DNA of 64,000 nt, taken from the NCBI RefSeq assembly GCF_024298765.1, contig NZ_CP101212.1; one strand, 5' to 3'. How positions within the stretch are numbered: position 1 is the stretch's first letter; each line of letters opens with the position of its first letter. This document shows positions 1-59,518 of the stretch, in pieces. The position numbers were made by a program, and so were the translations under genes. Source of the DNA: Escherichia coli. Its GTDB lineage: Bacteria; Pseudomonadota; Gammaproteobacteria; Enterobacterales; Enterobacteriaceae. The notes under the pieces are model-generated. The model saw nothing but the letters and a program-made list of their open reading frames with translations, had not been told where the DNA came from and ran no database searches.

Positions 1-570
1 AACTCAGCAAACATTCGTAAATGGATTGCTCGGTTTTATCACTTTTGGCATCTATACTCCGCTGGAAGCCCGGGTATATTGCTCACAATAGTTGCCCATC
101 GATATGGGGAGCTCATCTGCACTGTTCATTAATATACTTCTGGGCTCCCTACAGTTGTTTTTGCATAGTGATAAGCCTCTCTCTGAGGGAGGAAATAATC
201 CTGTTCAGCGATGTCTGCCAGTCGGGGGGGCTGCATTATCCACGCCCGAGGCGGTGGTGGCTTCACGCGGGGATGGGCAGATTGATCTGATATGCAACCG
301 ACGACGACCAGCGGCAACATCATCACGCAGAGCTTCATTTTCAGATTTGGGCCACCTTTTGATTTCTCGTTTAACTTTTGCAGTCACCAGACTGTGATTT
401 ATTTTAACAAATCAATAGCTTTCATAAAATTCTCGAAGCTGAAAGCTTAACTGAACCAACCAGCCTGGCTGGTGTTTTCTAAAGACAAAAAGGCCATCAG
501 CAAAACACTGATAGTCTGAATCACCTTTATCAATCATGTATGAAGAAAATATGCGCAATTAGTTGACAGT

Positions 571-31045: not shown

Positions 31046-31160
31046 ATAACTATACTCCCCGCATAGCTGAATTGTTGGCTATGCGGTTTTATGGGGCCCC
31101 GGTAATCTTTCTAGTCGCCAAACTTGAAGAAGATTATCGGGGTTTTCGCTTTTCTGGCTC
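31046..31160 (+). ncRNA. copA: Predicted CopA-type antisense RNA region (coordinates approximate)
   Basis: Expected antisense to the repA leader between copB and tap; plus-strand hairpins with U-tracts at 31059-31091 and about 31098-31150; boundaries not resolved. Confidence 0.25.
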
Positions 31161-31817: not shown

Positions 31818-32024
31818 TTACTTCCGTGCTTCGTAGGCCAGAGTTACCTGCACCACTGTATTTCCTCTGTGAATATTCAGCTCACATAACCGTTCCCTGA
31901 ATATCAGTGAAAAACACAACACCGTGGCGCACACGGCGAGCAACCCGATAAGGGCATATTTCGTCATAAACTTTGACCTCTCAGCAAAGAAGAGGCTACA
32001 ATCAGTAGTGTTAAGGTACTTCAT
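31818..32024 (-). CDS. srnB: Hok/Gef-family type I toxin, SrnB-like
   Basis: 68 aa MKYLNTTDCSLFFAERSKFMTKYALIGLLAVCATVLCFSLIFRERLCELNIHRGNTVVQVTLAYEARK; single TM with the hok-family C-terminal motif. Confidence 0.8.
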   Translation of the reverse strand: MKYLNTTDCSLFFAERSKFMTKYALIGLLAVCATVLCFSLIFRERLCELNIHRGNTVVQVTLAYEARK

Positions 32025-32483
32025 GCAGACCTCACGAGTTAATGGATTAACGAGTGGGGTCTTCGCATTTCTGGTACCTGCGTCTTGCCTGAACCAGAAA
32101 GGCTCAAACACCCGCCGCGATAATACCACATTCCCTGTTGCTGACTATTACCCCCATTTGCCTGTTTTTGTTACAAAAACGCCGGGAGCGGGGGAAAACT
32201 TACTTTTTCCCGTTTCCGGGGGGGACAACTGAGCATTGCGAACGCGTCAGCTACGATGTTCCGGTGATTGCTGATCAGCCCCTGTTGTATTCATAAACTA
32301 ATTAACATTCATTCTGTCTGGTGCATAAATCTGCCCGTGAACATCTGCAGACAATACCGGCCATGAAAAGATAAATAATACCAGTGGAATATATTTCCTC
32401 ATGTTATTCTCCATATCAGATAAATGGCACCTGTATTTCAGCCCCCCTGAATATCGCAGCACACATTGAATAAGACCTTATTT

Positions 32484-32499: not shown

Positions 32500-32606
32500 A
32501 AATATAAAATCGCGACTTAATACGGAAAAAACTCTGTGCTACTCAGAACTGGCCGGTCATACTGCCCGACCGGATATTAAAAAAAGCAAATCTCATAAAC
32601 TCCTTT

Positions 32607-32647
32607 CAGCCTTCTGACTCCTGGAGTAATGAAGGCTGCTTTTTTCG
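32607..32647 (+). terminator. Plus-strand hairpin plus U-tract
   Basis: cagccttc ... gaaggctg stem with a 16 nt loop followed by CTTTTTTC. Confidence 0.35.
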
Positions 32648-32860
32648 TTACACCCTTCCCCGGCAGCGCCGGTGGCAGTGTTCAGCCCTTTTCCGGGCAA
32701 ACTGTTGCCAGTCTGTCCGGGGAGCTATGCAGGCAGCCCGTCGCCATGCTTCTGCCGCTTCCATCCAGCGTCCACTGACCTCCAGAATAACGGCCCGCCC
32801 GCCGGCACGCTGGTAACGCCAGACCTGACCGTTCCGTGAACTGTTTCTGAATCCATTCAT
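32648..32860 (-). CDS. Hypothetical small protein (70 aa)
   Basis: ORF only; no recognisable motifs. Confidence 0.3.
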   Translation of the reverse strand: MNGFRNSSRNGQVWRYQRAGGRAVILEVSGRWMEAAEAWRRAACIAPRTDWQQFARKRAEHCHRRCRGRV

Positions 32861-35343: not shown

Positions 35344-38300
35344 TCAGTCTCCGCCCAGGGTTTTCTCTTTCTGCAGGTCACGAACCATATCCCGCTCCAT
35401 CTGCTGCAGTCGCTCCTGCAGCAGATTTTCCCGGGCAACCTCCCGGACCGCTTCCCGCACCCGTTGTGGTTCACGCAGTACACTCTCCGGCAGCGCGGCT
35501 TCCCGTTCAGATATGGCAGACCGGTCACGCTCCAGCCCGGCAATATCCCTGACAGCCTGCTCTGTTTTGCCGTCCGGCAGGTCAGGTTTGTTCTCTGCCA
35601 TTTTACGGACAATTTCATCCGCACGGCGTTCCGTTTCACGGCGGATGGCCTCTTCAGCCTGCCGCTGTGCCAGTACCTCTGCCGTGACCGGTTCGCCATT
35701 TCCGGCTCCCGGCTGAACGCTGTTGTCCGGGATATCCCCCCACACGCGACCACCGGTGATGGTTCTGGGATTCCACGGACGACCTTCACCGGCGATTCTT
35801 ACCACCACACCGCTGTCAGGATTATCACGGGCAATCCGGACACCATCCTGCATATTATCAGCCAGCAGGCTCTCTCCGTTACGGCTGCCCTGCAGGGCCA
35901 CGAACTGCGCATCCCCGCTGCCTTTCACCCGGCCTTCACCACTGAAGCCCCGCAGCCCGTTTCCGTCATCCGTGGTCAGCGGGTTCAGCCAGATACCAGC
36001 TGACTTGCCGTTACGGTCAAAAGCCGGCAGTGCCACATACGGCTGCGGATATTTGCGCCCGGGTGCAATAAACCGTGCAGGACTGTCTCCCCCGGCCAGC
36101 CCTGCCTGACGGAGAACGGCACGGCCGGCCACCACGTCCCGCAGCTCCCGCGCCGTACTGAACAGCCGCTCTGCATTCATGACCTCCCGGTCCGATTTCG
36201 GCTCCAGCACATCGTGGGCAGTTCCTTTCTGTACGGCATTGTTGATGGCATCCGTCCAGCCCTGACGGTTATCGGTGTACACCTGCACATGCTGCTTCAT
36301 ACGCGACAGGGCCACGTAGGCTGACTCAAAGCCGGCCATCAGTTTCCGGTTACCTTCCGTGCCTTCAAGCGCGATGGCAAAGGTTTCACTTGCCCCCTGC
36401 GCACCGTGGGCGGTGATGGCATAAGCCAGGTCAATATGTTGCTCTGCCCGCTCCTGACCTGGGCGAATCACCCGGATCTGCTGTCCGTCCGACAGCGTGA
36501 CACTGTCACCGGAAACCGCTGTCACCGTCCAGACGCTGTTGGCCACATAACCTCGCTCCCGGTCACTCTTCGTGAAGCGCATCCGGTCACCGGTTCCCAC
36601 CCGGATGGTGTCCGGGGTGTACAGTGTGACGCCTTCAGCCACCGCCTCCCGGGGCGAAATCAGCCGCGTGTTACCTTCCGCATCCTCCAGGGTTATCAGC
36701 CCGTCATCCTTGCTGATACCGGCAATCCGGTGATACACACTATCCACCAGGGCAAGGGCATCCGGGTTATTCTCCCAGGTGGAGAGACGACGCAGTTCTC
36801 CGTCACGTATATTCGCTGTGTTCAGGACAGGCACCATGACCTGCTCTTTGCCCAGCTCACCGGCCTTTTCCCGTGCATCATGAATCATGCTGTTCAGTAC
36901 GCGCCGGTCCTCATTCAGGTGTGTGACAATCAGCGTCTGCTCCCGTGCTTCCGGTGTCCTGCCGGTATAGTCGCGGACAATGGCTTCATACAGTGTCATG
37001 GGGATATCCGGGAAAGCCTCGCCTTTCAGCATCGCCTTCTGCTGCGCTTCTGCCAGTTTCGCTTCCTGGCTGTGACTGAACTCCGTCACGGAGTGCTCCG
37101 GTGCCCATGCGCCCTCCTGACGGGGAACCTGAGACGGTTTCACACTCTCAAGCCCGGACAGTGCCCTTTCCACATCCCGGTTAATCAGGCTGTATACCGC
37201 CTCCCGCAGTTCCGGCGTCTGACGCACAATCTCCTTCATGATGACCACATCGGCAGCACTGCGCGTCTGCTGGAGACGGAAAGGCTGACCGGGCGCGATG
37301 GCCTGCAACTGGTCCGTGTCACCACTGGCCACGGCACGACCGCCACCGGCCGCAATCAGGGCGTATGCCCGTGCCATGTCGGTATTGCCCACCATAGAGC
37401 TCTCATCGAGCAGGAACAGCGTGTTGCTGAAATTCGGCGTTTCTCCGCTGCGCTGCAGCAGCTGCGTGTCATGCAGAAAGGACGCCAGCGTCTGTGCATC
37501 CACGCCGGCGCTGCGCATCTCACCGACCGCACGGTGCGTGGGCCCCAGCCCCACGACACGGGGACGTTCACTCTCCGGCAGCATGTTCACGGCTGACATC
37601 ACCGCCCGGAACTGTGTGGTCTTACCCACACCGGCATAGCCCTGCACCACCGTGAAACGGTCGGACGTTTCCAGTATCATGCGGGTAGCGGCACGCTGTC
37701 CTGATGTCAGTTTCTCCATGAGTTCGCCAGGTACTCTCTCCATCAGTGGCGTGACCGCCTCCTTACCTTCGAGAATATGGCGAAGAATGCTCTTTTCTGC
37801 CTCATACGACGCACGGGAAACCAGCAGGCCTGTGCCATAGCCTTTTGCCACATCCACATACAGTAAATCACCGCGTTTTATCTGCGCATTGATTTCCCCT
37901 CCCAGTTCAGTAAAACTGGTTCCTTCTGCAGCAAACGACTTCGCCTCTGTCAGCAGGTCCACCATGCTGAAGGCCAGGTTTTTACTTTCCACCACAGGAA
38001 GCGCCAGATGAATAGCCTGCTGTGCCGGCGTGTGAAGCCCGGTTTTCTGCAGACTGATAGCGGTTTCCAGCAATGTCTCACCGGCACGCGCCTTTATCTG
38101 CTCAGAAACCACCGTAAAGGAGGGATGGCGGGCAAGTTTTTCCGCAGTACGGGTTTCATCCAGTGAGGAATACAGCCGGACATCACGACCGCTGCGGGCC
38201 AGACCGTTCAGGGTGGCGTTGTCCATTGCCATCTGTGTGACGGAGGCAAAAACCTTCGCACTGTCGCTGACGGAATGCCCGGGCGTTTCCACCCAGCCGT

Positions 38301-40614
38301 TCTCCAGCTTCAGTGCCATGAATGGTGAATCGCTCACAGGCAGGGAGGCCGGTTCAGCCCGCCCCGGCACAACAACCGTCATCGCATCTTCACTGACGGA
38401 TGCCACCTGCAGGCGGTCACCGCCGGAGACGCGGAGTCCGGGAATTTTCCCTGTCACCCTCAGTCGCTCGCCGTCTGCCACCGGCATTTTTTCCGGCCGG
38501 AACAGCGACCAGCTGCTGTCCAGGGAGGAAATACGCACCACCTGCGTTTCATCCTGCGCATCCCGCAGGGTCAGGCTGTTACTCTGCGCCGTCACCCGGT
38601 CGATAACATAGCGGTCATGACTGCGTGTCTCCGGGTTCCACTGCTCCATCACCATCCCCGGACGGTACATATCCCGCAGATAACGGCTCCGGCTGTCCAG
38701 CCAGACCGGCGACAGGGCGGTCATGGTTACCTCCGGGCGTCCGAGCACGCCCTGTGTTTTCAGCTCACTGCGAATGGCCTGTGTCAGTATGGCCTGTTCC
38801 CGTACCCCGCTGACCTGTGCCACGCTCTCTTCTCCGGCTTTCACGCTGGCAGCAAAATCTCCTGCCAGCCGGGCATAGCGGACATTACGGTCCGGTTCAC
38901 TGATGATGGTGGCCGGCCGCTGTTCTCCCCCCTGCCAGCGATATGTGTTCACCCCGGCATCTTTCATGGCCATCAGTGCACTGCCTGTACCGGTTCGCTG
39001 CCCGCTGTCGGTTATCAGGACCTGTACGTTATGACGTGCGGCACCGTCCAGCAGGGTTAACGTCTCTTTCAGGGAGAGTTTTTCGCCCTGGTCAACGATA
39101 ACAGTATTGCCCGGCGTGAAGGCCATGCCCTCCTGCAGCTGACGACGTCCGGTTATCAGCTCACCGGACAGCCGTTCATCCTGCTTCAGGTTCATCTGCG
39201 AGCGACGGTCAGCGGCGATAATCTGCACCTCCCGCCCCTGCTCCCGGGCCATCATGACCAGCTCCGCCACCCGCTCACGCTGCCCGGCTGCACCGCCCTG
39301 CCCGGACACAATAGCCAGCGACGGGCGATCCTGTGCCAGAACACTGACCGCATCGCTGTAACCGGCCGTCCGGGGGACACTTTTCTCCGGATGTACGGTC
39401 ACCCGGTTCTGTTTCATGATGTCACGACTGAGTGCCCGGACTGACAGCTCATCGAGCACATGAATCCCGGACGTGAACAGCCCCTTCTCACGATCGAGGG
39501 GGATAAGCTGCTCACGGCTGATGGCCTCATCGATACCGGCGCGTGCCCGTTCAATCACACCATTTTCCGGCGGCAGTATGCCGACCGTTCTGGCCAGCAC
39601 GTCCGTGTACGTAAACTGCACTTTGCGTTCACTTAATCCGGCAATGGCCTGTGTCACCGCCTGCTGCACATCCGGCCCGTCCTGTGAAGCGGGTCCGGGC
39701 GTCTGCGTGCGGGTCTCCGCCCGTTGGTCCGCCGCGTCACGATACGCCCGGATGTCGAACCCGGTTTCCTTCAGCGTCTGCATCCATTCAGCCATTCTGA
39801 CTTCAGGATCGACGTGCTGTTTGGATTTTCGCGTATCCAGTGCCGCCACATCCCGGGATTTCAGCGAGGCGTCTTCCCCGACGGCCTCCCGGATAGCCTG
39901 TGAGCGTCCGGAGAAGGCCTCCACCGGTACGCCCGGCATCTCCCACATACCGTGCTTACCAACCACTTCCGTTTCATAGCCTAGCGCCTCAACCTGCTCT
40001 TTCAGTTTTTCCCGGTAGAGCCTGCCGAAGGCAATCTGATTAGCGTACACATTCTCAATGAACCCCGTTTTCCCCACTTTGTCACTGCTCAATGTCTTCC
40101 ACTCGCCGTTATGCTGCGTGACATTGGCCACTACCGCATGTGTGTGTAACTGTGGTTCCTGATCGCGACTGGTGTCGTGGTTAAACAGTGCCATCACCAG
40201 ATTACCGGTCAGCACCGTTTCTGACTGTCCGTCCGTCATAACCCGTGTGGAAGCCAGCGCCTCCACCTGACGGACAGCAAAATCCACGGCCTGGTTATGT
40301 GCATCAATAAGACGTTTATCACCGCCTAACATGGCCATCACGGAGACACTTTTGGGGGCGGAGAAGGTCAGGTCGTAGCCGGGACGATGCTTATTACTGC
40401 CATCCTGCATGCGGCTTAAATCCGCTCCGTCCGGCAGCTTCCCCTCCAGAAGACGGGTAAAAACATCCTTATCGACGCTGCCCTGCAGCCCCAGCTGTTC
40501 AGCCCCCCTGCCGGCCCAGCGTTCTCCCATGCTGCCCAGCACATAGTAATTATCCTTGTCGGTATAATAGTTACCGGCACTTCCGGCCGATCTGACCTGC
40601 GCGATACTCATCAT
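35344..40614 (-). CDS. traI: Relaxase/helicase TraI
   Basis: 1756 aa from MMSIAQVRSAGSAGNYYTDKDNYY; relaxase N-terminus plus helicase Walker motifs. Confidence 0.95.
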   Translation of the reverse strand: MMSIAQVRSAGSAGNYYTDKDNYYVLGSMGERWAGRGAEQLGLQGSVDKDVFTRLLEGKLPDGADLSRMQDGSNKHRPGYDLTFSAPKSVSVMAMLGGDKRLIDAHNQAVDFAVRQVEALASTRVMTDGQSETVLTGNLVMALFNHDTSRDQEPQLHTHAVVANVTQHNGEWKTLSSDKVGKTGFIENVYANQIAFGRLYREKLKEQVEALGYETEVVGKHGMWEMPGVPVEAFSGRSQAIREAVGEDASLKSRDVAALDTRKSKQHVDPEVRMAEWMQTLKETGFDIRAYRDAADQRAETRTQTPGPASQDGPDVQQAVTQAIAGLSERKVQFTYTDVLARTVGILPPENGVIERARAGIDEAISREQLIPLDREKGLFTSGIHVLDELSVRALSRDIMKQNRVTVHPEKSVPRTAGYSDAVSVLAQDRPSLAIVSGQGGAAGQRERVAELVMMAREQGREVQIIAADRRSQMNLKQDERLSGELITGRRQLQEGMAFTPGNTVIVDQGEKLSLKETLTLLDGAARHNVQVLITDSGQRTGTGSALMAMKDAGVNTYRWQGGEQRPATIISEPDRNVRYARLAGDFAASVKAGEESVAQVSGVREQAILTQAIRSELKTQGVLGRPEVTMTALSPVWLDSRSRYLRDMYRPGMVMEQWNPETRSHDRYVIDRVTAQSNSLTLRDAQDETQVVRISSLDSSWSLFRPEKMPVADGERLRVTGKIPGLRVSGGDRLQVASVSEDAMTVVVPGRAEPASLPVSDSPFMALKLENGWVETPGHSVSDSAKVFASVTQMAMDNATLNGLARSGRDVRLYSSLDETRTAEKLARHPSFTVVSEQIKARAGETLLETAISLQKTGLHTPAQQAIHLALPVVESKNLAFSMVDLLTEAKSFAAEGTSFTELGGEINAQIKRGDLLYVDVAKGYGTGLLVSRASYEAEKSILRHILEGKEAVTPLMERVPGELMEKLTSGQRAATRMILETSDRFTVVQGYAGVGKTTQFRAVMSAVNMLPESERPRVVGLGPTHRAVGEMRSAGVDAQTLASFLHDTQLLQRSGETPNFSNTLFLLDESSMVGNTDMARAYALIAAGGGRAVASGDTDQLQAIAPGQPFRLQQTRSAADVVIMKEIVRQTPELREAVYSLINRDVERALSGLESVKPSQVPRQEGAWAPEHSVTEFSHSQEAKLAEAQQKAMLKGEAFPDIPMTLYEAIVRDYTGRTPEAREQTLIVTHLNEDRRVLNSMIHDAREKAGELGKEQVMVPVLNTANIRDGELRRLSTWENNPDALALVDSVYHRIAGISKDDGLITLEDAEGNTRLISPREAVAEGVTLYTPDTIRVGTGDRMRFTKSDRERGYVANSVWTVTAVSGDSVTLSDGQQIRVIRPGQERAEQHIDLAYAITAHGAQGASETFAIALEGTEGNRKLMAGFESAYVALSRMKQHVQVYTDNRQGWTDAINNAVQKGTAHDVLEPKSDREVMNAERLFSTARELRDVVAGRAVLRQAGLAGGDSPARFIAPGRKYPQPYVALPAFDRNGKSAGIWLNPLTTDDGNGLRGFSGEGRVKGSGDAQFVALQGSRNGESLLADNMQDGVRIARDNPDSGVVVRIAGEGRPWNPRTITGGRVWGDIPDNSVQPGAGNGEPVTAEVLAQRQAEEAIRRETERRADEIVRKMAENKPDLPDGKTEQAVRDIAGLERDRSAISEREAALPESVLREPQRVREAVREVARENLLQERLQQMERDMVRDLQKEKTLGGD

Positions 40615-40695
40615 AAACGTATATCCCTTTGACATATCCCGGTATCAATCCCACAATGGATATACACAAGACATATCCACATAAGGAGGCAAATA

Positions 40696-40923
40696 ATGGA
40701 AACCACCGTATTTTTCAGCAACCGCAGCCAGGCGGTCAGACTGCCAAAAGCGGTTGCATTGCCGGAAAACGTAAAACGCGTTGAAGTGATTGCTGTCGGA
40801 CGAACCAGAATCATTACGCCAGCCGGAGAGACATGGGACGAATGGTTCGACGGACACAACGTCAGCGCCGATTTTATGGATAACAGGGAACAGCCCGGCA
40901 TGCAGGAAAGGGAGTCATTCTGA
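40696..40923 (+). CDS. vapB: VapB/VagC antitoxin (AbrB/SpoVT fold)
   Basis: 75 aa; overlaps the vapC start (TGATG). Confidence 0.85.
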   Translation: METTVFFSNRSQAVRLPKAVALPENVKRVEVIAVGRTRIITPAGETWDEWFDGHNVSADFMDNREQPGMQERESF

Positions 40924-41321
40924 TGCTGAAGTTTATGCTCGATACCAACATCTGCATTTTCACGATAAAGAACAAACCCGCCAGCGTCAGGGAGCGTTTT
41001 AACCTGAACCAGGGGAGAATGTGTATCAGTTCGGTCACCCTGATGGAGCTGATATATGGTGCAGAAAAAAGCCAGATGCCTGAACGTAATCTCGCTGTGA
41101 TCGAGGGATTTGTTTCCCGCATTGATGTTCTGGATTACGACGCTGCCGCAGCCACACACAGCGGCCAGATAAGAGCAGAACTTGCCCGTCAGGGACGCCC
41201 TGTCGGGCCATTTGATCAAATGATCGCAGGTCATGCCCGCAGTCGGGGACTGATTATTGTGACTAATAACACCCGGGAATTTGAACGTGTGGACGGTCTG
41301 AGAATTGAAGACTGGAGCTGA
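40923..41321 (+). CDS. vapC: VapC/VagD PIN-domain toxin
   Basis: 132 aa; MLDTNICIF N-terminus, acidic PIN residues. Confidence 0.85.
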   Translation: MLKFMLDTNICIFTIKNKPASVRERFNLNQGRMCISSVTLMELIYGAEKSQMPERNLAVIEGFVSRIDVLDYDAAAATHSGQIRAELARQGRPVGPFDQMIAGHARSRGLIIVTNNTREFERVDGLRIEDWS

Positions 41322-41329
41322 CCTGTTCA

Positions 41330-43483
41330 TCAGAAATCATCTCCCGGCTCAACATCCTCCCCGCGCTCCCGGTGCACATTGATGTTCACCTCTTCACGAC
41401 GCTGCATCTTCTGCTGGATATCCGGATTCTGCTCCCGTTGCCATGCCTCATAAACGGCCATATCCACCACTTCACCGGATTCACTGATCCCGGGTGGCAG
41501 TTGCTGTTCCATCTCTTCTTCCGGTTTCATTTTCAGCTCCTGCTCGATCCCCCCTGCCGGAACATTCACACCTGCATCTGACTTCTTATCGTTGATGGCA
41601 GGAGACACCGGCTGTTGCGGCTGTTCAGCCTGAGTCACGTCTTCTCCGGAAACAACCTCCGGGACATCCGGTTCGAAGAGGCTGGCCATCTGACGACCTT
41701 CTGCTTCCCTTGCGGCAAGTACGGCACTCAGACGGTTCTCCATTTCCGGGTTGATGTCACGCGGAATAAACTCCGGAGCGACCTTCGGTCGTGTCTGATA
41801 TTTCAGGGAGAGTTTTACTGCCGGATACGGTCCGGGCAGGGTGACATAACAGGTCAGATCCGGCAGAGACTGAATGTCGGAATAACTGACCAGCGTCTGA
41901 CGCTCCATATCCTTACCGGTCGATACCCCGTCACGTACCGGATCAGCACCGTAGGAATACTGCTCGCTGGCTTTCAGGTGCTCTTTCTCACCAATTTCAC
42001 CGGCAGCGAACTCTGCAATCTTATGGCTGGGAGAACGGAAAAAGGCACGGGTGTTCATGACGTCAAACAGCGTGGCAGCCGCTTTCTCACCGTAGATATC
42101 TTCCAGCTGGGCATAGGACTGGATACCAAACACATAACAGCCACCGAACTTACGGGCTTCCGGCAGGATCTCCACCAGATCCGGCAGTTTGTGTAACGTG
42201 GGTAACTCGTCACAGAAAAACCACACACGACGGTTACGGTTTTCTCCCATTGCCAGCAGACCACGAATAGCAATGGACAGCCACATGGAGATCACCGGCT
42301 TCAGGGAGGCATGGGTGTCGGCGTTCGACGAAATAAACAGCCAGCCGTTTTTCTGATCTTCCCGGACACCACGCATCCAGTCACGGATGGTGAAGGGCTC
42401 ACCGTTATGCTCAATCCCCTGCAGGTAACGGATGGCTTTCACGTAGTTGGTCAGCACAGCACGGATGGATATGGCCGTTTTCTCGATTTTCTCTTCCACC
42501 AGGTTGGCCGCCGGTGAATTACGCAGGAAGGTACGCAGCTTTTCAATTTTGATGGAAAGCAGTGTGTCCACCAGTTTGCTGTAGCTGCGGTTGGGGTCAT
42601 TACGCATCAGGTATGCCGCTTCCGCAAAAATGGTACGTCCTGAACCCTGCCAGAACGGGTCCTCTTTTGTCCCCATCGGGATCAGAGTATTTGCGGTATT
42701 ATCAAAATCTGGCTGTGTCAGGCACTCCTTCCACAAATCCCAGGCAGCACAGCGTGCATCCAGCGGATTCAGGATTTTATCGATGGAGGGATCATAGTAA
42801 CTTTTAACAAATTCCCCCGAACGGTCATAAATCACCACCATATCACCACGCTGACGGGCGTAGTTGGCCAGACGACGGATAACCTCCGACTTACCGGCCC
42901 CGACAGTGCCGTGCAGACAGAAGTTCTGGATTTCAGAATCCCGGATAATCGGCAGATCGCCAATCCGGATATCGGAATCCTTGCCATCTTTTTTCAGCAT
43001 CCTGGCCACCTCTTTCGGATTGTCAGTCAGCTGACGACCACCTGTGATTTCATTTTCGCTCTGTTGTTTACCCTGACGCCCCAGAATCCAGGAGACAACA
43101 AAGAAGGTGATCAGGCAGATAACCAGGGCCACGACAGACGCCAGAACGAATGCCGACCATAACTGCTCACCGCACCAGATCATATATTTATCATGCAGTA
43201 CCTGAGCCGCGTTCATCCGGAAGGTTTTGCCGTAATACTGGATCTCATAGACCGGCTGGGACCTGATTAAATCCCGCATGCCTTCCAGCGTGGTGCACCA
43301 CCAGTAAATGCAGCCATTCACAAACGTCTGCCAGCTTATTTTTACCCATAAAACCAGACCAACTAGGATCCAGAAAAAAATAAACAGGCAGTAAAGTATG
43401 ATATTGGCGATCTGACTGAACATGCGGATACGCATGGACGCAATCTGACCGCCCTGGGTCATATCCTTTGCGTTAAAACTCAT
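41330..43483 (-). CDS. traD: Type IV coupling protein TraD
   Basis: 717 aa; Walker A GTVGAGKS; C-terminal QQP-rich tail. Confidence 0.95.
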
Positions 43484-45011: not shown

Positions 45012-47834
45012 TTATTGCTTATACTTATCCTGATACTCCTTTGCCCTTTTCATCAGTTCCTGTGGACTGTCAGCCCCGGGCATTCTTTCCTGAGCCGACT
45101 TTTCTTCATTATATTTATTATTCTGAGATAATGCCTCTGTTTTATGGTGATTCTGCAGTTCAGAATACTGTCCTCTTACAATATTTTCCTCGCCACGTAT
45201 GCTGTTCTGAGTATCACCTATATTCCCTTTATATTCTGTGACCATATTATCAACCTGATGTTTTACATCATTACGGATATTACTGTCCTGCATTCTTTGC
45301 TCAATAATGGCCTGATGTCCCTGATGGTCAGCAATAATATCCTGACTGCCTCCACCCGAAGGTACGCTCTCCATTCCTTTACCAATATCGCCACGGGATT
45401 CCCGCCAGGCATTATCAACACCAGGCTGTATCTGTTCCTGCACAAAAGACCAGGCCATTGCCCGACGGCGTTCTGCAATCTCCGGCGAACTGGTATTTGT
45501 CAGAATAGCTTCGGCATCCTGCGGTGCGTGTTTCATCACATACTGTGCAAACTGTTGCGACAAATCTTCGCTCATCTGCCCACTCATGCTTTCAGTACGG
45601 GATGCCATTTCAGCATATTCATGGCTGCGGGTCATATTCGTCGTGTACTGGTCGTAACTCTGTTTCGCTGAATTCAGGGCTGCAGACAGTTGATCCACCC
45701 GGGAATCAGCATTATTGTCAGTATGGCTGCCGGATTCACTGACTTTGCGACTGGTAAAGTAATCGCTGGCCTCTTTAAAGTCCTTACTGGCTTTAGCGTC
45801 AATATCATGACGAGCATCATAGCTGGCCCGTGAACCACTGCTGGCCTGATGCGCATCATCATCACTCCAGTCAATGCCAGCCCGACCACCACCTCTAACG
45901 CCTAATCCTCCACCAACACCAAGAATTTTAGGTTTAACCCCCCATTCAGCATGAGCATCTCCATACATCCCGGCAGAAGCTCTCGTACTTCTGGATGCCA
46001 GTTCCTGAGTCGCCTGCTCATTACTGATATTATGCGCCTTCGCATAGCTTTCCACTGCACTGCGCATACGGCTGGCCATCATGGAGTCCTGTGCACTCAT
46101 CGTACTGTCAGCACCACTGGTGACAGAGTCACTGCTCCCCCGGTTAGAACCAAACTGACTGAGCGTGTTCCAGGCACTGGCAATACTGCTGCTGAAACCA
46201 TGCAGGGCACTTTCTGCTCTGTTCGACGCCTCCCGGGCCATTTCCTGTTGTGCCACTGCAATCTGACGCGTTGCATTGATACCGACCGGTAAACGGGACA
46301 TCGCTCCGCTTGCATCCATCACCATATTACCGTCACGGGTCTGTGTGGCGGTTGCGCCACTGCCGGTCTGGTACATCATCTGACCAAACGACGTGGTGCT
46401 GTTGGTGCTCCAGCTGAAGCCGTTCACGTTTTCCGTCTGCATGTTGCCGTAGGAGTAATTACCGTCAACCACACTACCTGCCGCACTGGCAGTCGGGCTG
46501 ATAGCAGAGGAAGCGAAATGGCTGTACACACTGGAAAATCCGGCCCCAAGCCCCCTGACCATCATCCAGGATAATGGCGGGATCATCATGGAAAGATACC
46601 CGGCAGTGGAAGCCAGATCGGAGTATTTCAGTTGTATCTGTGAAATTTCAGAGAGCACCACCGGCGCACCATTCTGTTTCGCATAAAATGTCATGGCACT
46701 GTTCAGAATGGCGTACAAGAGTGGCCATGACTGCAGCCACATCAGGGCAAACACATAACCTTTCAGGACAGACAGCGTCAGTTTGTTGAATACAGCCGCC
46801 AGTACCAGGAGCGGGAAAATACCGATGGCGATCCCCGTCAGGATGGTCTGCGTCATGGGCAGTGTCCGCATCGCCACATGACCGATGGAGACATGTGCCA
46901 GACGTTGTTTCTCCATCGATGACGTGGTGGCCAGATTCACCAGGCTGGCCGAATCACCATTACGTGCGGCATAACTGGTGATCCCCTCCTTCAGCGCATT
47001 GATGGTGACATTCTGGCGGATGATCTGGCTGGCTGATTTACTTGAGCCATAGAAGTAACTGTAACTGTCGCCAATCAGCGTACTGAACAGCAGGTTAGGA
47101 TCAGGGCGTCCACCAAATAGCTGCTGGGCATAATAATGCCAGGTTTTTCCGCCACTCTGTGTGTCCAGATTCAGCTTGTCTTTCAGCGAAACCGACGCGT
47201 CCTTACAGGTTACGAAATTATTATTGCTGTCATAAACGCCCCGCAGCGGGCTGGGGCGGGAAAAAATCAGCGTGTAGGGATCAGCGGAGGCCATCAGCTC
47301 CTCCAGCGTGTATTTGTGGTTCAGGTAAATATCCCCCATAACACAGTTCTGCACATAATCCTGGAAAAGATTGGCGATTTCCGGATTGCGGGACAAAAAG
47401 TCGGTGCTTTTTGATACCAGTTCTGCGCCAAACAGCATCCCCGTTTTGCTGTAGGTGACACTGTCCGGTTGCGTGAAGATCATCTCGTAACTGGCCACCA
47501 TTGCATGCCCGATACGGGTCGTCAGTGAAAGTGGCATCGCCAGTCCGACCGGCACATTATCCACCCGGTGAACTTTGACCAGGTCACTGTTATCAATAAT
47601 CTGCACCGATGTGCGGACATTAACCAGCAGGCTGATAAGCACAAATACGGCCACCCAGCCCAGCAAATCCATCACGTTGTGCCGCTGTACCCACATTACG
47701 GCCACCGCGAGAACAGACAATGTGAGCGCAATTTTTTCAATGGAATCCCACGTCCTGGTTCCCATAAAGGCGGCAATGGCGTTCAGGTTATTCCGCAACC
47801 ACTCACCACCGGCAATCACATAAACTTCATTCAC
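45012..47834 (-). CDS. traG: Mating-pair stabilisation protein TraG
   Basis: 940 aa; synteny. Confidence 0.93.
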   Translation of the reverse strand: MNEVYVIAGGEWLRNNLNAIAAFMGTRTWDSIEKIALTLSVLAVAVMWVQRHNVMDLLGWVAVFVLISLLVNVRTSVQIIDNSDLVKVHRVDNVPVGLAMPLSLTTRIGHAMVASYEMIFTQPDSVTYSKTGMLFGAELVSKSTDFLSRNPEIANLFQDYVQNCVMGDIYLNHKYTLEELMASADPYTLIFSRPSPLRGVYDSNNNFVTCKDASVSLKDKLNLDTQSGGKTWHYYAQQLFGGRPDPNLLFSTLIGDSYSYFYGSSKSASQIIRQNVTINALKEGITSYAARNGDSASLVNLATTSSMEKQRLAHVSIGHVAMRTLPMTQTILTGIAIGIFPLLVLAAVFNKLTLSVLKGYVFALMWLQSWPLLYAILNSAMTFYAKQNGAPVVLSEISQIQLKYSDLASTAGYLSMMIPPLSWMMVRGLGAGFSSVYSHFASSAISPTASAAGSVVDGNYSYGNMQTENVNGFSWSTNSTTSFGQMMYQTGSGATATQTRDGNMVMDASGAMSRLPVGINATRQIAVAQQEMAREASNRAESALHGFSSSIASAWNTLSQFGSNRGSSDSVTSGADSTMSAQDSMMASRMRSAVESYAKAHNISNEQATQELASRSTRASAGMYGDAHAEWGVKPKILGVGGGLGVRGGGRAGIDWSDDDAHQASSGSRASYDARHDIDAKASKDFKEASDYFTSRKVSESGSHTDNNADSRVDQLSAALNSAKQSYDQYTTNMTRSHEYAEMASRTESMSGQMSEDLSQQFAQYVMKHAPQDAEAILTNTSSPEIAERRRAMAWSFVQEQIQPGVDNAWRESRGDIGKGMESVPSGGGSQDIIADHQGHQAIIEQRMQDSNIRNDVKHQVDNMVTEYKGNIGDTQNSIRGEENIVRGQYSELQNHHKTEALSQNNKYNEEKSAQERMPGADSPQELMKRAKEYQDKYKQ

Positions 47835-56894: not shown

Positions 56895-59518
56895 GCCACA
56901 CTCCTGTATTTCTCATGTTCTTCCAGCCAGGCTTCCAGCGAAGCCATTTCCGGCCCTGACTTCTTCCACGCCAGCTGCCACACTGCCTCATGAATACTCA
57001 GCCCCTCTTTACGCTTCTGCTGCACAAACTCAAAATCCGGGCCGTCAGAGCTGTACATGGCGCGGCTTAACGGGTCCACAAACAGACGGTGCCAGGAGGA
57101 ATGGTTTTCCACCTGCAGCAGGAAGGAACTGAACCACTGGTCTTTGGCCGCACCAAACTTACCAATCATGTCGCGCTGCAGTGGCAGGAACTGGTCCGGA
57201 TACAGTTGGTTGTATTTCGCGAACTCCTTCGCACTCTGTTTGAGGATAATTTTGTAGGAGGAGTTACCCCATGCCGCGCGGGCAGCACTGGAGGCCTTAT
57301 CAGAGTCAAAGTCGACGATGTTCTGTGTGATGGTGATATAGGCACCGGTATGACGGCGGGCCGTACGGTAGCCTTTCTCAATAAATTCACCGACCTTGTG
57401 ATTTTTGAAGTCCAGCAGACGCCAGCCTTCATCAATAACGTTCAGTTTCTTGAGGTTACGCGGCGTGCGGTACATCCTGTTCTCGATGTAGATAATCAGG
57501 GAGAACATCACCGCAACCAGCAGTGACGGACGGTCTTCCAGTCCGCCCAGCTCCAGCACCACCATTTTTGCGTCATCCCGCAGGGACGGCTCATCAGAGT
57601 TAAAATACTGGCCGTAAGTGCCGTTGGCAGTGTACTGGTCAAGCAGCACAATCATTTCGTCCAGACGGCTGCGGATAGTCGGTGACTCGGCATACTGCTC
57701 GCTGTCACTGGCGTTTTTCAGGAAATCCACCACGTCATCAATACGTGCTCTGTTCTCTTTGGCCAGCCAGGAGGCTCTGACCGCCTGCAACAGCAGACCT
57801 TCATGCACTTCATCCAGGTTACCGTTGGGGCTGGCCATCACTGACAACTGGTCACGGACACGCTCCGCTGACTGGTCAATATCGGTGATGTTCGCAAACG
57901 GGTTAAAACGCAGGGTTTCACCGTCCAGATACACCCCGCCCATGTTCTCACACAGGGACTTGTATCCATCCCCCATGTCGAACACCACGGCAAAGCCTCC
58001 GGAGTCCAGCACGCTGCGGATAAGTGGCTGTATCAGCCCGGTTTTACCGGCCCCGGAGGTGCCACAGACCGCCATGTTGTAGTTGGTGTTATTCATCCCC
58101 CGGAAGAAAATATCGATAAACGCCAGCTGGTTACGGTAGGTGGGTGCCAGCAGACCTGCCGGTGTCAGGGGGTTATCCGCCACTAACGGCATCAGGTTGG
58201 CAACATTAAAGCTCTCTGCGCGCTGAACCACTCCGGCCTCTTTCAACTGTTTAAACAGCCCTTTCCCGGCCATAAAGGGCAGGCAGGTCAGGAAATTGCG
58301 CATGTGGTTAAAGCGCGGTGAAATCAGCTCAAAACCGTTTTTACGAAAGCTGTTCAGGATGTCCTGCTCCACTTCCAGCGCCGTTTCATTATTGTCCTTG
58401 CAGAATGCTGTGATGTTGAGGAAGTAGGACACCACGGAGGACTGACCGGAGCCCAGCCGCTGACGCAGTTCCCCCCACTCCTTCGCCTCTTTCTCCACGG
58501 ACGGAAACCATTTGGCATAGGAGGTCTTCGACTTTTTCTCCAGGTCCATGTACTTCAGGTTGGCTTCGCTGTGGGTTTTCACCTGGTCTTCCACCACCAG
58601 AGTCAGCGTCAGGATGAACGGACAGGAGATGGACAGTTCCGGGTTCAGCAGGTTGCTGTAGTTGTCGGCCACGTTCCACAGGAAGGCGATTTCCGGGTTA
58701 CGGGCCAGATGGAAATTCAGGATGCGGGCCGTGCTGTTCCTGCCGTTCTCACGCAGGCCCAGCGTCAGGTAATCAGCCCGGACTTTCAGATCAAAACTGT
58801 CCTCCACACACTGATAATTCAGATCAGAATACGGGTCCAGCTGACGTCTTTTCGGGTACAGGGAGTCCGGGTTATGGTTAATCATCTCCCCGACAATATC
58901 GATAAAGGCCTGTGCATCCACCGTCTGTGTGGTGATACTGGCCCCCTGTAACGACGCCCGGATGATTTTCACCAGGTTTTCCATTTCCAGAATGTCGGCC
59001 CGGCTTTTTTTCTTCGAAGGAGAACAGTACGAGATAAACACCCGGTAATGGCGCAGGGTCAGGGGCAGATTCATCCCCTCCGGCAGCGGAAACTGTGTCG
59101 CTGCCGCTTTCATATAATAGGCCCGGGTAATGGCGTTAAACCGTTCAGCCTGTTCACCTGACCAGGAGAACTCACGCAGCCCGTATTCAATCCTGTCACC
59201 AACCAGCTGACTGGACATCAGATGGATACACAACGGAATACCGCGCGGCAGTTTGGTGCGCAGCATGTGATCGAGGGCCTCCACAATGGACTCATTCGCC
59301 CCATTGATGGGGATGGCTTCCAGCATAAAGCCCATCGTGGTGTCATTCATGAACAGACCGGATTCCTGGTTGTAATCACGGTACGGCAGCAGACGGCTGA
59401 ACTGCGGGAAGCTCATTTCGCCCAGAACTTCATTGGCCTTTGCGGATTCGTCAGGCAGTTTCAGTGCTGTGACGAGGGAGTTAACCGCCTGAGTGACGGC
59501 CTCAAGTGGGTTATTCAC
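56891..59518 (-). CDS. traC: VirB4-like ATPase TraC
   Basis: 875 aa; Walker A GTSGAGKT. Confidence 0.95.
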   Translation of the reverse strand: MNNPLEAVTQAVNSLVTALKLPDESAKANEVLGEMSFPQFSRLLPYRDYNQESGLFMNDTTMGFMLEAIPINGANESIVEALDHMLRTKLPRGIPLCIHLMSSQLVGDRIEYGLREFSWSGEQAERFNAITRAYYMKAAATQFPLPEGMNLPLTLRHYRVFISYCSPSKKKSRADILEMENLVKIIRASLQGASITTQTVDAQAFIDIVGEMINHNPDSLYPKRRQLDPYSDLNYQCVEDSFDLKVRADYLTLGLRENGRNSTARILNFHLARNPEIAFLWNVADNYSNLLNPELSISCPFILTLTLVVEDQVKTHSEANLKYMDLEKKSKTSYAKWFPSVEKEAKEWGELRQRLGSGQSSVVSYFLNITAFCKDNNETALEVEQDILNSFRKNGFELISPRFNHMRNFLTCLPFMAGKGLFKQLKEAGVVQRAESFNVANLMPLVADNPLTPAGLLAPTYRNQLAFIDIFFRGMNNTNYNMAVCGTSGAGKTGLIQPLIRSVLDSGGFAVVFDMGDGYKSLCENMGGVYLDGETLRFNPFANITDIDQSAERVRDQLSVMASPNGNLDEVHEGLLLQAVRASWLAKENRARIDDVVDFLKNASDSEQYAESPTIRSRLDEMIVLLDQYTANGTYGQYFNSDEPSLRDDAKMVVLELGGLEDRPSLLVAVMFSLIIYIENRMYRTPRNLKKLNVIDEGWRLLDFKNHKVGEFIEKGYRTARRHTGAYITITQNIVDFDSDKASSAARAAWGNSSYKIILKQSAKEFAKYNQLYPDQFLPLQRDMIGKFGAAKDQWFSSFLLQVENHSSWHRLFVDPLSRAMYSSDGPDFEFVQQKRKEGLSIHEAVWQLAWKKSGPEMASLEAWLEEHEKYRSVA

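Follow-up and report, generated by a model that had tools for sequence, protein, structure and literature searches.

The two genes at 40696-41321 of the analysed DNA, a stretch of 64,000 nucleotides from Escherichia coli (contig NZ_CP101212.1 of assembly GCF_024298765.1; hereafter the window), very probably represent the resident vapBC type II toxin-antitoxin operon of F-like plasmids, which is also known as mvpAT, vagCD or vapBC2, in its usual place in the trbH interval and transcribed against the tra genes. Judged by its sequence, the pair is an intact VapB/VapC type II module. Its presence at the traD-traI junction is already known and annotated in current RefSeq records and does not represent a new insertion.

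An intact VapB/VapC pair transcribed against tra

The antitoxin gene vapB (40696-40923, plus strand), assigned from its open reading frame and NCBIfam, encodes 75 amino acids with an AbrB/SpoVT-type N-terminal DNA-binding domain and an alanine at position 58. It is followed by the toxin gene vapC (40923-41321, plus strand), whose product of 132 amino acids is predicted to be a PIN-domain tRNA(fMet) endonuclease and carries an arginine at position 32. Reading the sequence, the vapB stop and the vapC start overlap by one base (ATGA at 40920-40923). VapB matches the NCBIfam VapB family NF040493 with 110.6 bits (E = 3e-32; cut-off 60) and VapC matches NF010285, the tRNA(fMet)-specific endonuclease VapC, with 289 bits (E = 3e-87; cut-off 143). 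In addition, VapC is recovered by the Pfam PIN model (E = 1.9e-21), and the score of VapB against Pfam MazE_antitoxin is marginally below the threshold (24.4 versus 24.7 bits).

The active-site residues listed for VapC, D7, E42, D98 and E119 (bioRxiv 10.1101/2020.08.10.243006), are all present in the window protein and invariant across seven aligned homologues. Compared with the crystal structures of Shigella VapBC, VapC differs at 3 of 132 residues from 6SD6 and at 4 of 132 from 3TND, and VapB differs at 2 of 75 residues from chain A of 6SD6 in the alignment. Based on the ~97% identity to these characterised Shigella proteins, we infer that VapC is toxic, that it cleaves initiator tRNA and that it is neutralised by VapB. 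A PIN toxin with all four acidic residues and an AbrB-type antitoxin directly upstream, organised as a bicistronic operon with overlapping stop and start codons, its own predicted promoter and putative inverted-repeat operators, place the pair among the enteric tRNA(fMet)-specific VapBC systems.

The predicted sigma-70 promoter of the operon lies at 40629-40657 (plus strand) and consists of a -35 element TTGACA (40629-40634), a 17-nt spacer and a -10 element CACAAT (40652-40657); by consensus match alone, this candidate agrees at 10 of 12 positions. Around the promoter we found two putative operator inverted repeats, GTATATCCCTT/AATGGATATAC at 40619-40629 and 40655-40665 and TGGATAT/ATATCCA at 40657-40663 and 40673-40679, which share an ATATCC/GGATAT core and together span 40619-40679. 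Such a layout is the one expected of the autoregulatory operators reported for VapBC systems. A strong Shine-Dalgarno sequence, AAGGAGG at 40683-40689 (plus strand), can be read off 6 nt 5' of the vapB ATG. Two terminator-like hairpins within vapC were discounted, as this number is at chance level (0.9 expected).

On the tra strand, the downstream neighbour is the relaxase/helicase gene traI (35344-40614, minus strand; the mechanical open reading frame extends to 40635, and the start at 40614 follows the RefSeq annotation of identical plasmids) and the upstream neighbour is traD, coding for the coupling protein (41330-43483, minus strand; stop at 41330-41332). Both flanking tra genes sampled are full length and oriented opposite to the vapBC pair, and vapC and traD converge with their stops 8 bp apart. 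The first-pass annotation had described a complete VapB/VapC pair between traI and traD on the opposite strand, and the open reading frames at these exact coordinates together with the NCBIfam and Pfam matches bear this out. It is also correct that vapBC adds a third toxin-antitoxin system to the window, as both pemI/pemK (15805-16393, minus strand) and a srnB-type hok/sok locus, with hok at 31821-31967 (minus strand) and an Rfam-type match to sok RNA at 31955-32113 (minus strand), were located.

Besides pemIK, hok and sok, the window contains a CopA-like replication-control RNA (31063-31151, plus strand) and a match to the sRNA STnc490 (356-477, minus strand), and this set corresponds to the usual maintenance and replication equipment of IncFII plasmids. 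Further Rfam matches are the antisense RNAs AS-traI (37689-37765), AS-traG (47030-47115) and AS-pc02 (32566-32751), all on the plus strand; two of these three families are defined opposite tra genes, i.e., antisense transcription in such tra regions has been recorded elsewhere. Plasmid pMB6206_1, otherwise 99.99% identical to the window, carries the IS66-family element ISEc23 in its tra region (38216-40749), which is absent from the window, and an 8-bp overlap between the alignment blocks of both sequences at 58508-58515 of the window looks like an ISEc23 target-site duplication.

An old resident of the traD-traI junction

The first-pass annotation took traD and traI to be neighbours in F, but this does not agree with the RefSeq record NC_002483, which reads traD, 8 bp, vapC, vapB, 81 bp, traI, with order, strands and spacing as in the window. 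Over 8 kb, the F DNA shares 96.6% identity with the window, and the proteins differ by the substitutions L43V, S80T, R89L and D124G in VapC and F7L, H54N and N55S in VapB. VapBC of the invasion plasmid pINV of Shigella flexneri and S. sonnei (MvpAT or STBORF1-2; 3TND, 6SD6) is encoded by DNA 98% identical to the window. In S. flexneri pINV, vapBC likewise lies between traI sequence and the 3' end of traD (last ~160 bp); unlike in the window, the tra operon of pINV is defunct and traD is cut by an IS3-family element. A third example is VapBC2ST (PSLT106/107; vagCD) of the Salmonella virulence plasmids, with slot and spacing as in the window, ~88% nucleotide identity and, for VapC, ~95% amino acid identity. 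This mvpAT homologue has been described as "encoded within the trbH gene" of pSLT (PMC5065971), and it was studied in a non-self-transmissible virulence plasmid.

The same slot is occupied by vapBC in F-like plasmids of Serratia marcescens, Serratia proteamaculans, Edwardsiella anguillarum and Edwardsiella tarda. TraI of these Serratia and Edwardsiella plasmids is 55-63% identical in amino acid sequence to TraI of the window, and the divergence of VapC follows that of the backbone. Because of this co-divergence as far as Serratia and Edwardsiella, vapBC is considered an old resident of the traD-traI junction and not a recent insertion. As a separate observation, the S. proteamaculans locus contains a 681-bp MobF relaxase fragment (positions 1958-2638), which resembles the TraI N-terminus, between vapC and traD, pointing to a junction that was partly duplicated in this plasmid.

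To what extent plasmids carry the operon at this place can be seen from the databases. In PLSDB, 4214 records match the traI/traD junction and 1154 of them (~27%) contain the full vapBC-containing stretch, i.e., the arrangement is not universal in F-like tra operons. Among 5426 complete E. coli genomes, the junction is matched in 2815, of which 749 have the full stretch. A window-type vapBC at ≥ 80% nucleotide identity is present in 1176 PLSDB records, and since 1154 of these also have both tra flanks, it is essentially specific to the traD-traI locus. With 4294 places in the 4214 junction-matching records, extra places per record are rare; therefore, the junction is mostly two-state across F-like plasmids, either empty or occupied by vapBC. 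These numbers give no support to the earlier proposal that vapBC marks an insertion hotspot.

At the empty sites, both in two plasmids examined and in sampled search results, the stop codon of traD and the start codon of traI overlap (ATGA). Alignment of the window with these two plasmids and with F defines a segment of 716 bp (40615-41330) that is absent from the empty-site plasmids and is flanked by the 4-bp sequence TCAT at 40611-40614 and 41327-41330. TCAT corresponds to ATGA in the tra orientation, so the occupied state retains the stop codon of traD as well as the start codon of traI. The 4-bp repeat would fit a precise deletion as much as an insertion. Further variation was seen in the 3' part of traD (~41400-41700), where the alignments split into two to three pieces, with spans of 610-820 bp in empty-site plasmids and an additional 54 bp in p1540-4, which points to indel variation in the TraD C-terminal region.

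Taken by itself, the 4-bp direct repeat that bounds the 716-bp segment could be read as the trace of a mobile toxin-antitoxin cassette that recently, and unusually, entered a normally uninterrupted traD-traI junction and thereby marks a hotspot. Such an event would also agree with the ~73% of matching plasmids that have no vapBC at the junction, with the traD/traI overlap in the two examined empty-site plasmids, whose backbone flanks are highly similar to those of the window, and with related vapBC at two other tra positions (between traT and traD in CP057195 and by traF in Pantoea). Nevertheless, we consider a recent insertion very improbable: apart from the near-complete linkage of vapBC to both tra flanks in PLSDB, F itself has the same arrangement, the same slot is used in plasmids with as little as 55-62% TraI identity, VapC has diverged in step with the backbone, and neither a transposase nor an integrase nor long terminal repeats are found alongside vapBC. 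Besides, the few extra places per record imply that large inserts splitting the junction appear to be uncommon.

Homologues outside tra operons, located on chromosomes and on other plasmids, as in E. coli CP089930 and in many Pseudomonas, Rhizobium and Halomonas genomes, have 70-91% amino acid identity to VapC and, like the window copy, are antitoxin-first bicistrons with overlapping stop and start. Within tra regions, the E. coli plasmid CP057195.1 carries vapBC (2274-2899 of the examined locus) between traT and a DUF2726 gene on one side and traD on the other, and Pantoea stewartii p5 carries it (1274-1899 of the examined locus) adjoining traF, in both cases on the strand opposite to tra. 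Based on these loci, antisense embedding of vapBC in tra operons seems to be recurrent.

Plasmid stabilisation and the R32 allele

By analogy with the characterised systems, VapB and VapC would be made from a single autoregulated promoter, which the VapB-VapC complex would repress by binding to the promoter inverted repeats, and the C-terminal tail of VapB would block the PIN active site of VapC. Upon loss of the plasmid, the labile VapB would be degraded and VapC freed; cleavage of initiator tRNA(fMet) by the freed toxin would then stop translation initiation, and plasmid-free segregants would be arrested or killed. We infer this stabilisation by post-segregational killing from the orthologues of pSLT and S. 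flexneri. Removal of vapBC2ST from pSLT raised the number of segregants 5.5-fold (PMC5065971), and mvpAT is the main stabiliser of the S. flexneri plasmid pWR100, with MvpT cleaving initiator tRNA (per PMC5065971).

How strong such an effect would be may depend on the allele. Residue 32 of VapC is an arginine in the window, F and pSLT and a lysine in S. flexneri pINV; beyond this position, up to three residues of the window VapC (S80, D124, I127) are not those of the Shigella proteins (3TND, 6SD6), and the window VapB is unlike Shigella VapB at F7 and N55. The combination of R32 in VapC with A58 in VapB is the S. sonnei allele. For the R32 variant, no measurable stabilisation of a test vector was reported, with toxicity, tRNA(fMet) cleavage and neutralisation unchanged, and the same study describes the polymorphism at VapB residue 58 (bioRxiv 10.1101/2020.08.10.243006). 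Given the R32 allele, the stabilising effect of the window vapBC may be weak. Since pemIK and hok/sok are encoded on the same plasmid, vapBC may also be redundant for maintenance.

The poor performance of the R32 allele in plasmid stabilisation (bioRxiv 10.1101/2020.08.10.243006) raises the question of whether the operon is kept mainly for a role other than post-segregational killing, be it regulation of stress and intracellular survival, persistence, abortive phage infection or control of tra by convergent transcription. In line with this, Salmonella vapC2ST mutants survive worse inside host cells (PMC4366850), VapBC is activated during Shigella infection (2025 preprint), and vapBC is always antisense to tra genes although it occupies three different tra positions. 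However, direct measurements of stabilisation exist for the orthologues of pSLT and S. flexneri (PMC5065971), neither VapB nor VapC nor TrbH matched a PADLOC defence model at E <= 0.001, and the sequence itself points to no particular alternative. We regard a different main role as rather unlikely.

The trbH frame opposite vapBC

The strand opposite vapBC contains trbH (40611-41330, minus strand), an open frame of 239 codons that is fully antisense to the toxin-antitoxin operon and bridges traD and traI, with its ATG overlapping the stop of traD and its TGA overlapping the start codon of traI. The same tra-strand frame of 239 codons is found in F, there again with both ATGA overlaps, and in pINV and pSLT. 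A list of F proteins places TrbH between TraD and TraI (PMC5102898), record JF274991.1 annotates TraD-TrbH-TraI without vapBC, and a recent study depicts trbH as a transcript that runs antisense to vapBC of Shigella, with no function assigned to it (2025 preprint).

The historical annotation, which persists in some records, would make trbH, read on the tra strand, the real gene, coding for a transfer protein, with the VapB and VapC frames being incidental. Its basis is an open reading frame of 239 codons precisely coupled to both traD and traI, besides JF274991.1 and the list of F proteins. This is hardly tenable in the face of VapB and VapC, which score far above the family cut-offs and match solved structures, whereas Pfam, NCBIfam and PADLOC gave no family match for TrbH. 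Moreover, about half of the vapC third positions, which are the first positions of trbH codons, differ between E. coli and Serratia or Edwardsiella. TrbH thus changes freely at the synonymous sites of vapC, which argues against a constrained TrbH protein. Both strands may nevertheless be translated, and the two readings are not mutually exclusive.

We somewhat favour the idea that trbH is a translated linker, which selection keeps open in order to keep traI coupled to traD. A linker of this kind does not imply a conserved TrbH protein, in agreement with the missing family match and with a sequence that shifts with synonymous changes in vapC. Ribosomes would read through the antisense of vapBC, and the translational coupling of traI to traD would be preserved; translation of trbH would perhaps also protect the long mRNA of the tra operon against Rho-dependent polarity.

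The trbH frame shares its phase with the codons of vapC and is open only if vapC avoids TTA, CTA and TCA. In vapC of five tra-embedded lineages, none of 74 leucine and TCN-serine codons is one of these three, compared with 148 of 908 such codons in GC-matched non-tra homologues (Fisher p = 5e-6). Yet, compared with the copies from Serratia, Edwardsiella and Pantoea, a different codon is used at 4-7 of the 9-10 leucine positions in common, and about half of all third positions are substituted. At the level of lineages, the frame is open in five of six tra-embedded lineages versus three of 79 non-tra lineages (Fisher p = 1e-5), and the non-tra homologues have a median of ~4 stops in the frame phased with vapC, which is uninterrupted in 3 of 77. 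The two closest E. coli homologues without traI or traD nearby, one of them chromosomal (90-91% amino acid identity), contain four and two stops. Most of the controls belong to other genera, and the tra-embedded lineages are not fully independent of each other.

In F, pSLT, S. marcescens, E. anguillarum and E. tarda, the open frame comes with ATGA overlaps at both ends, and it is kept at every interval length, from 716 bp in both F and pSLT to 767 bp in S. marcescens, 815 bp in E. anguillarum and 818 bp in E. tarda. In S. proteamaculans, the ORF in the trbH frame begins 1 nt after the stop of the upstream relaxase fragment, and in Pantoea stewartii, with vapBC antisense by traF, the frame is again open across vapBC. 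Taking the traD-traI slot alone, every sampled lineage with an apparently intact tra region has the frame open (the E. coli/Shigella F group, pSLT, two Serratia and two Edwardsiella species). The Hafnia plasmid CP015380 carries vapBC in the same slot with six stops in the frame; its traI has a large internal deletion, and typing by MOB-suite reports no mating-pair formation system. An exception is the E. coli plasmid CP057195, where vapBC lies between traT and traD and the frame contains two stops.

We also considered that the open frame could be a by-product of codon bias. When VapB and VapC were recoded in simulations with the codon usage of traI and traD, the frame was open in 7-19% of the trials. 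With such a chance per lineage, a single lineage proves nothing, and the case against codon bias rests on the recurrence of the open frame in several divergent lineages, on the conserved ATGA overlaps and on the natural controls.

Implications

The vapBC operon at the traD-traI junction is in itself ordinary, as F, pSLT and pINV carry it as their standard maintenance module, and its presence matters little. The common mental picture of adjacent traD and traI in F needs to be corrected, though, and the R32 allele may be relevant to predictions of how well this resistance plasmid persists. The conservation of the trbH frame and its coupling at both ends provide an answer, open to testing, to the question of what trbH is. 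If the linker reading is true, a toxin gene would be constrained in its coding sequence by the need to keep the opposite strand free of stops, and trbH would be an example of a long open reading frame maintained antisense to a complete operon.
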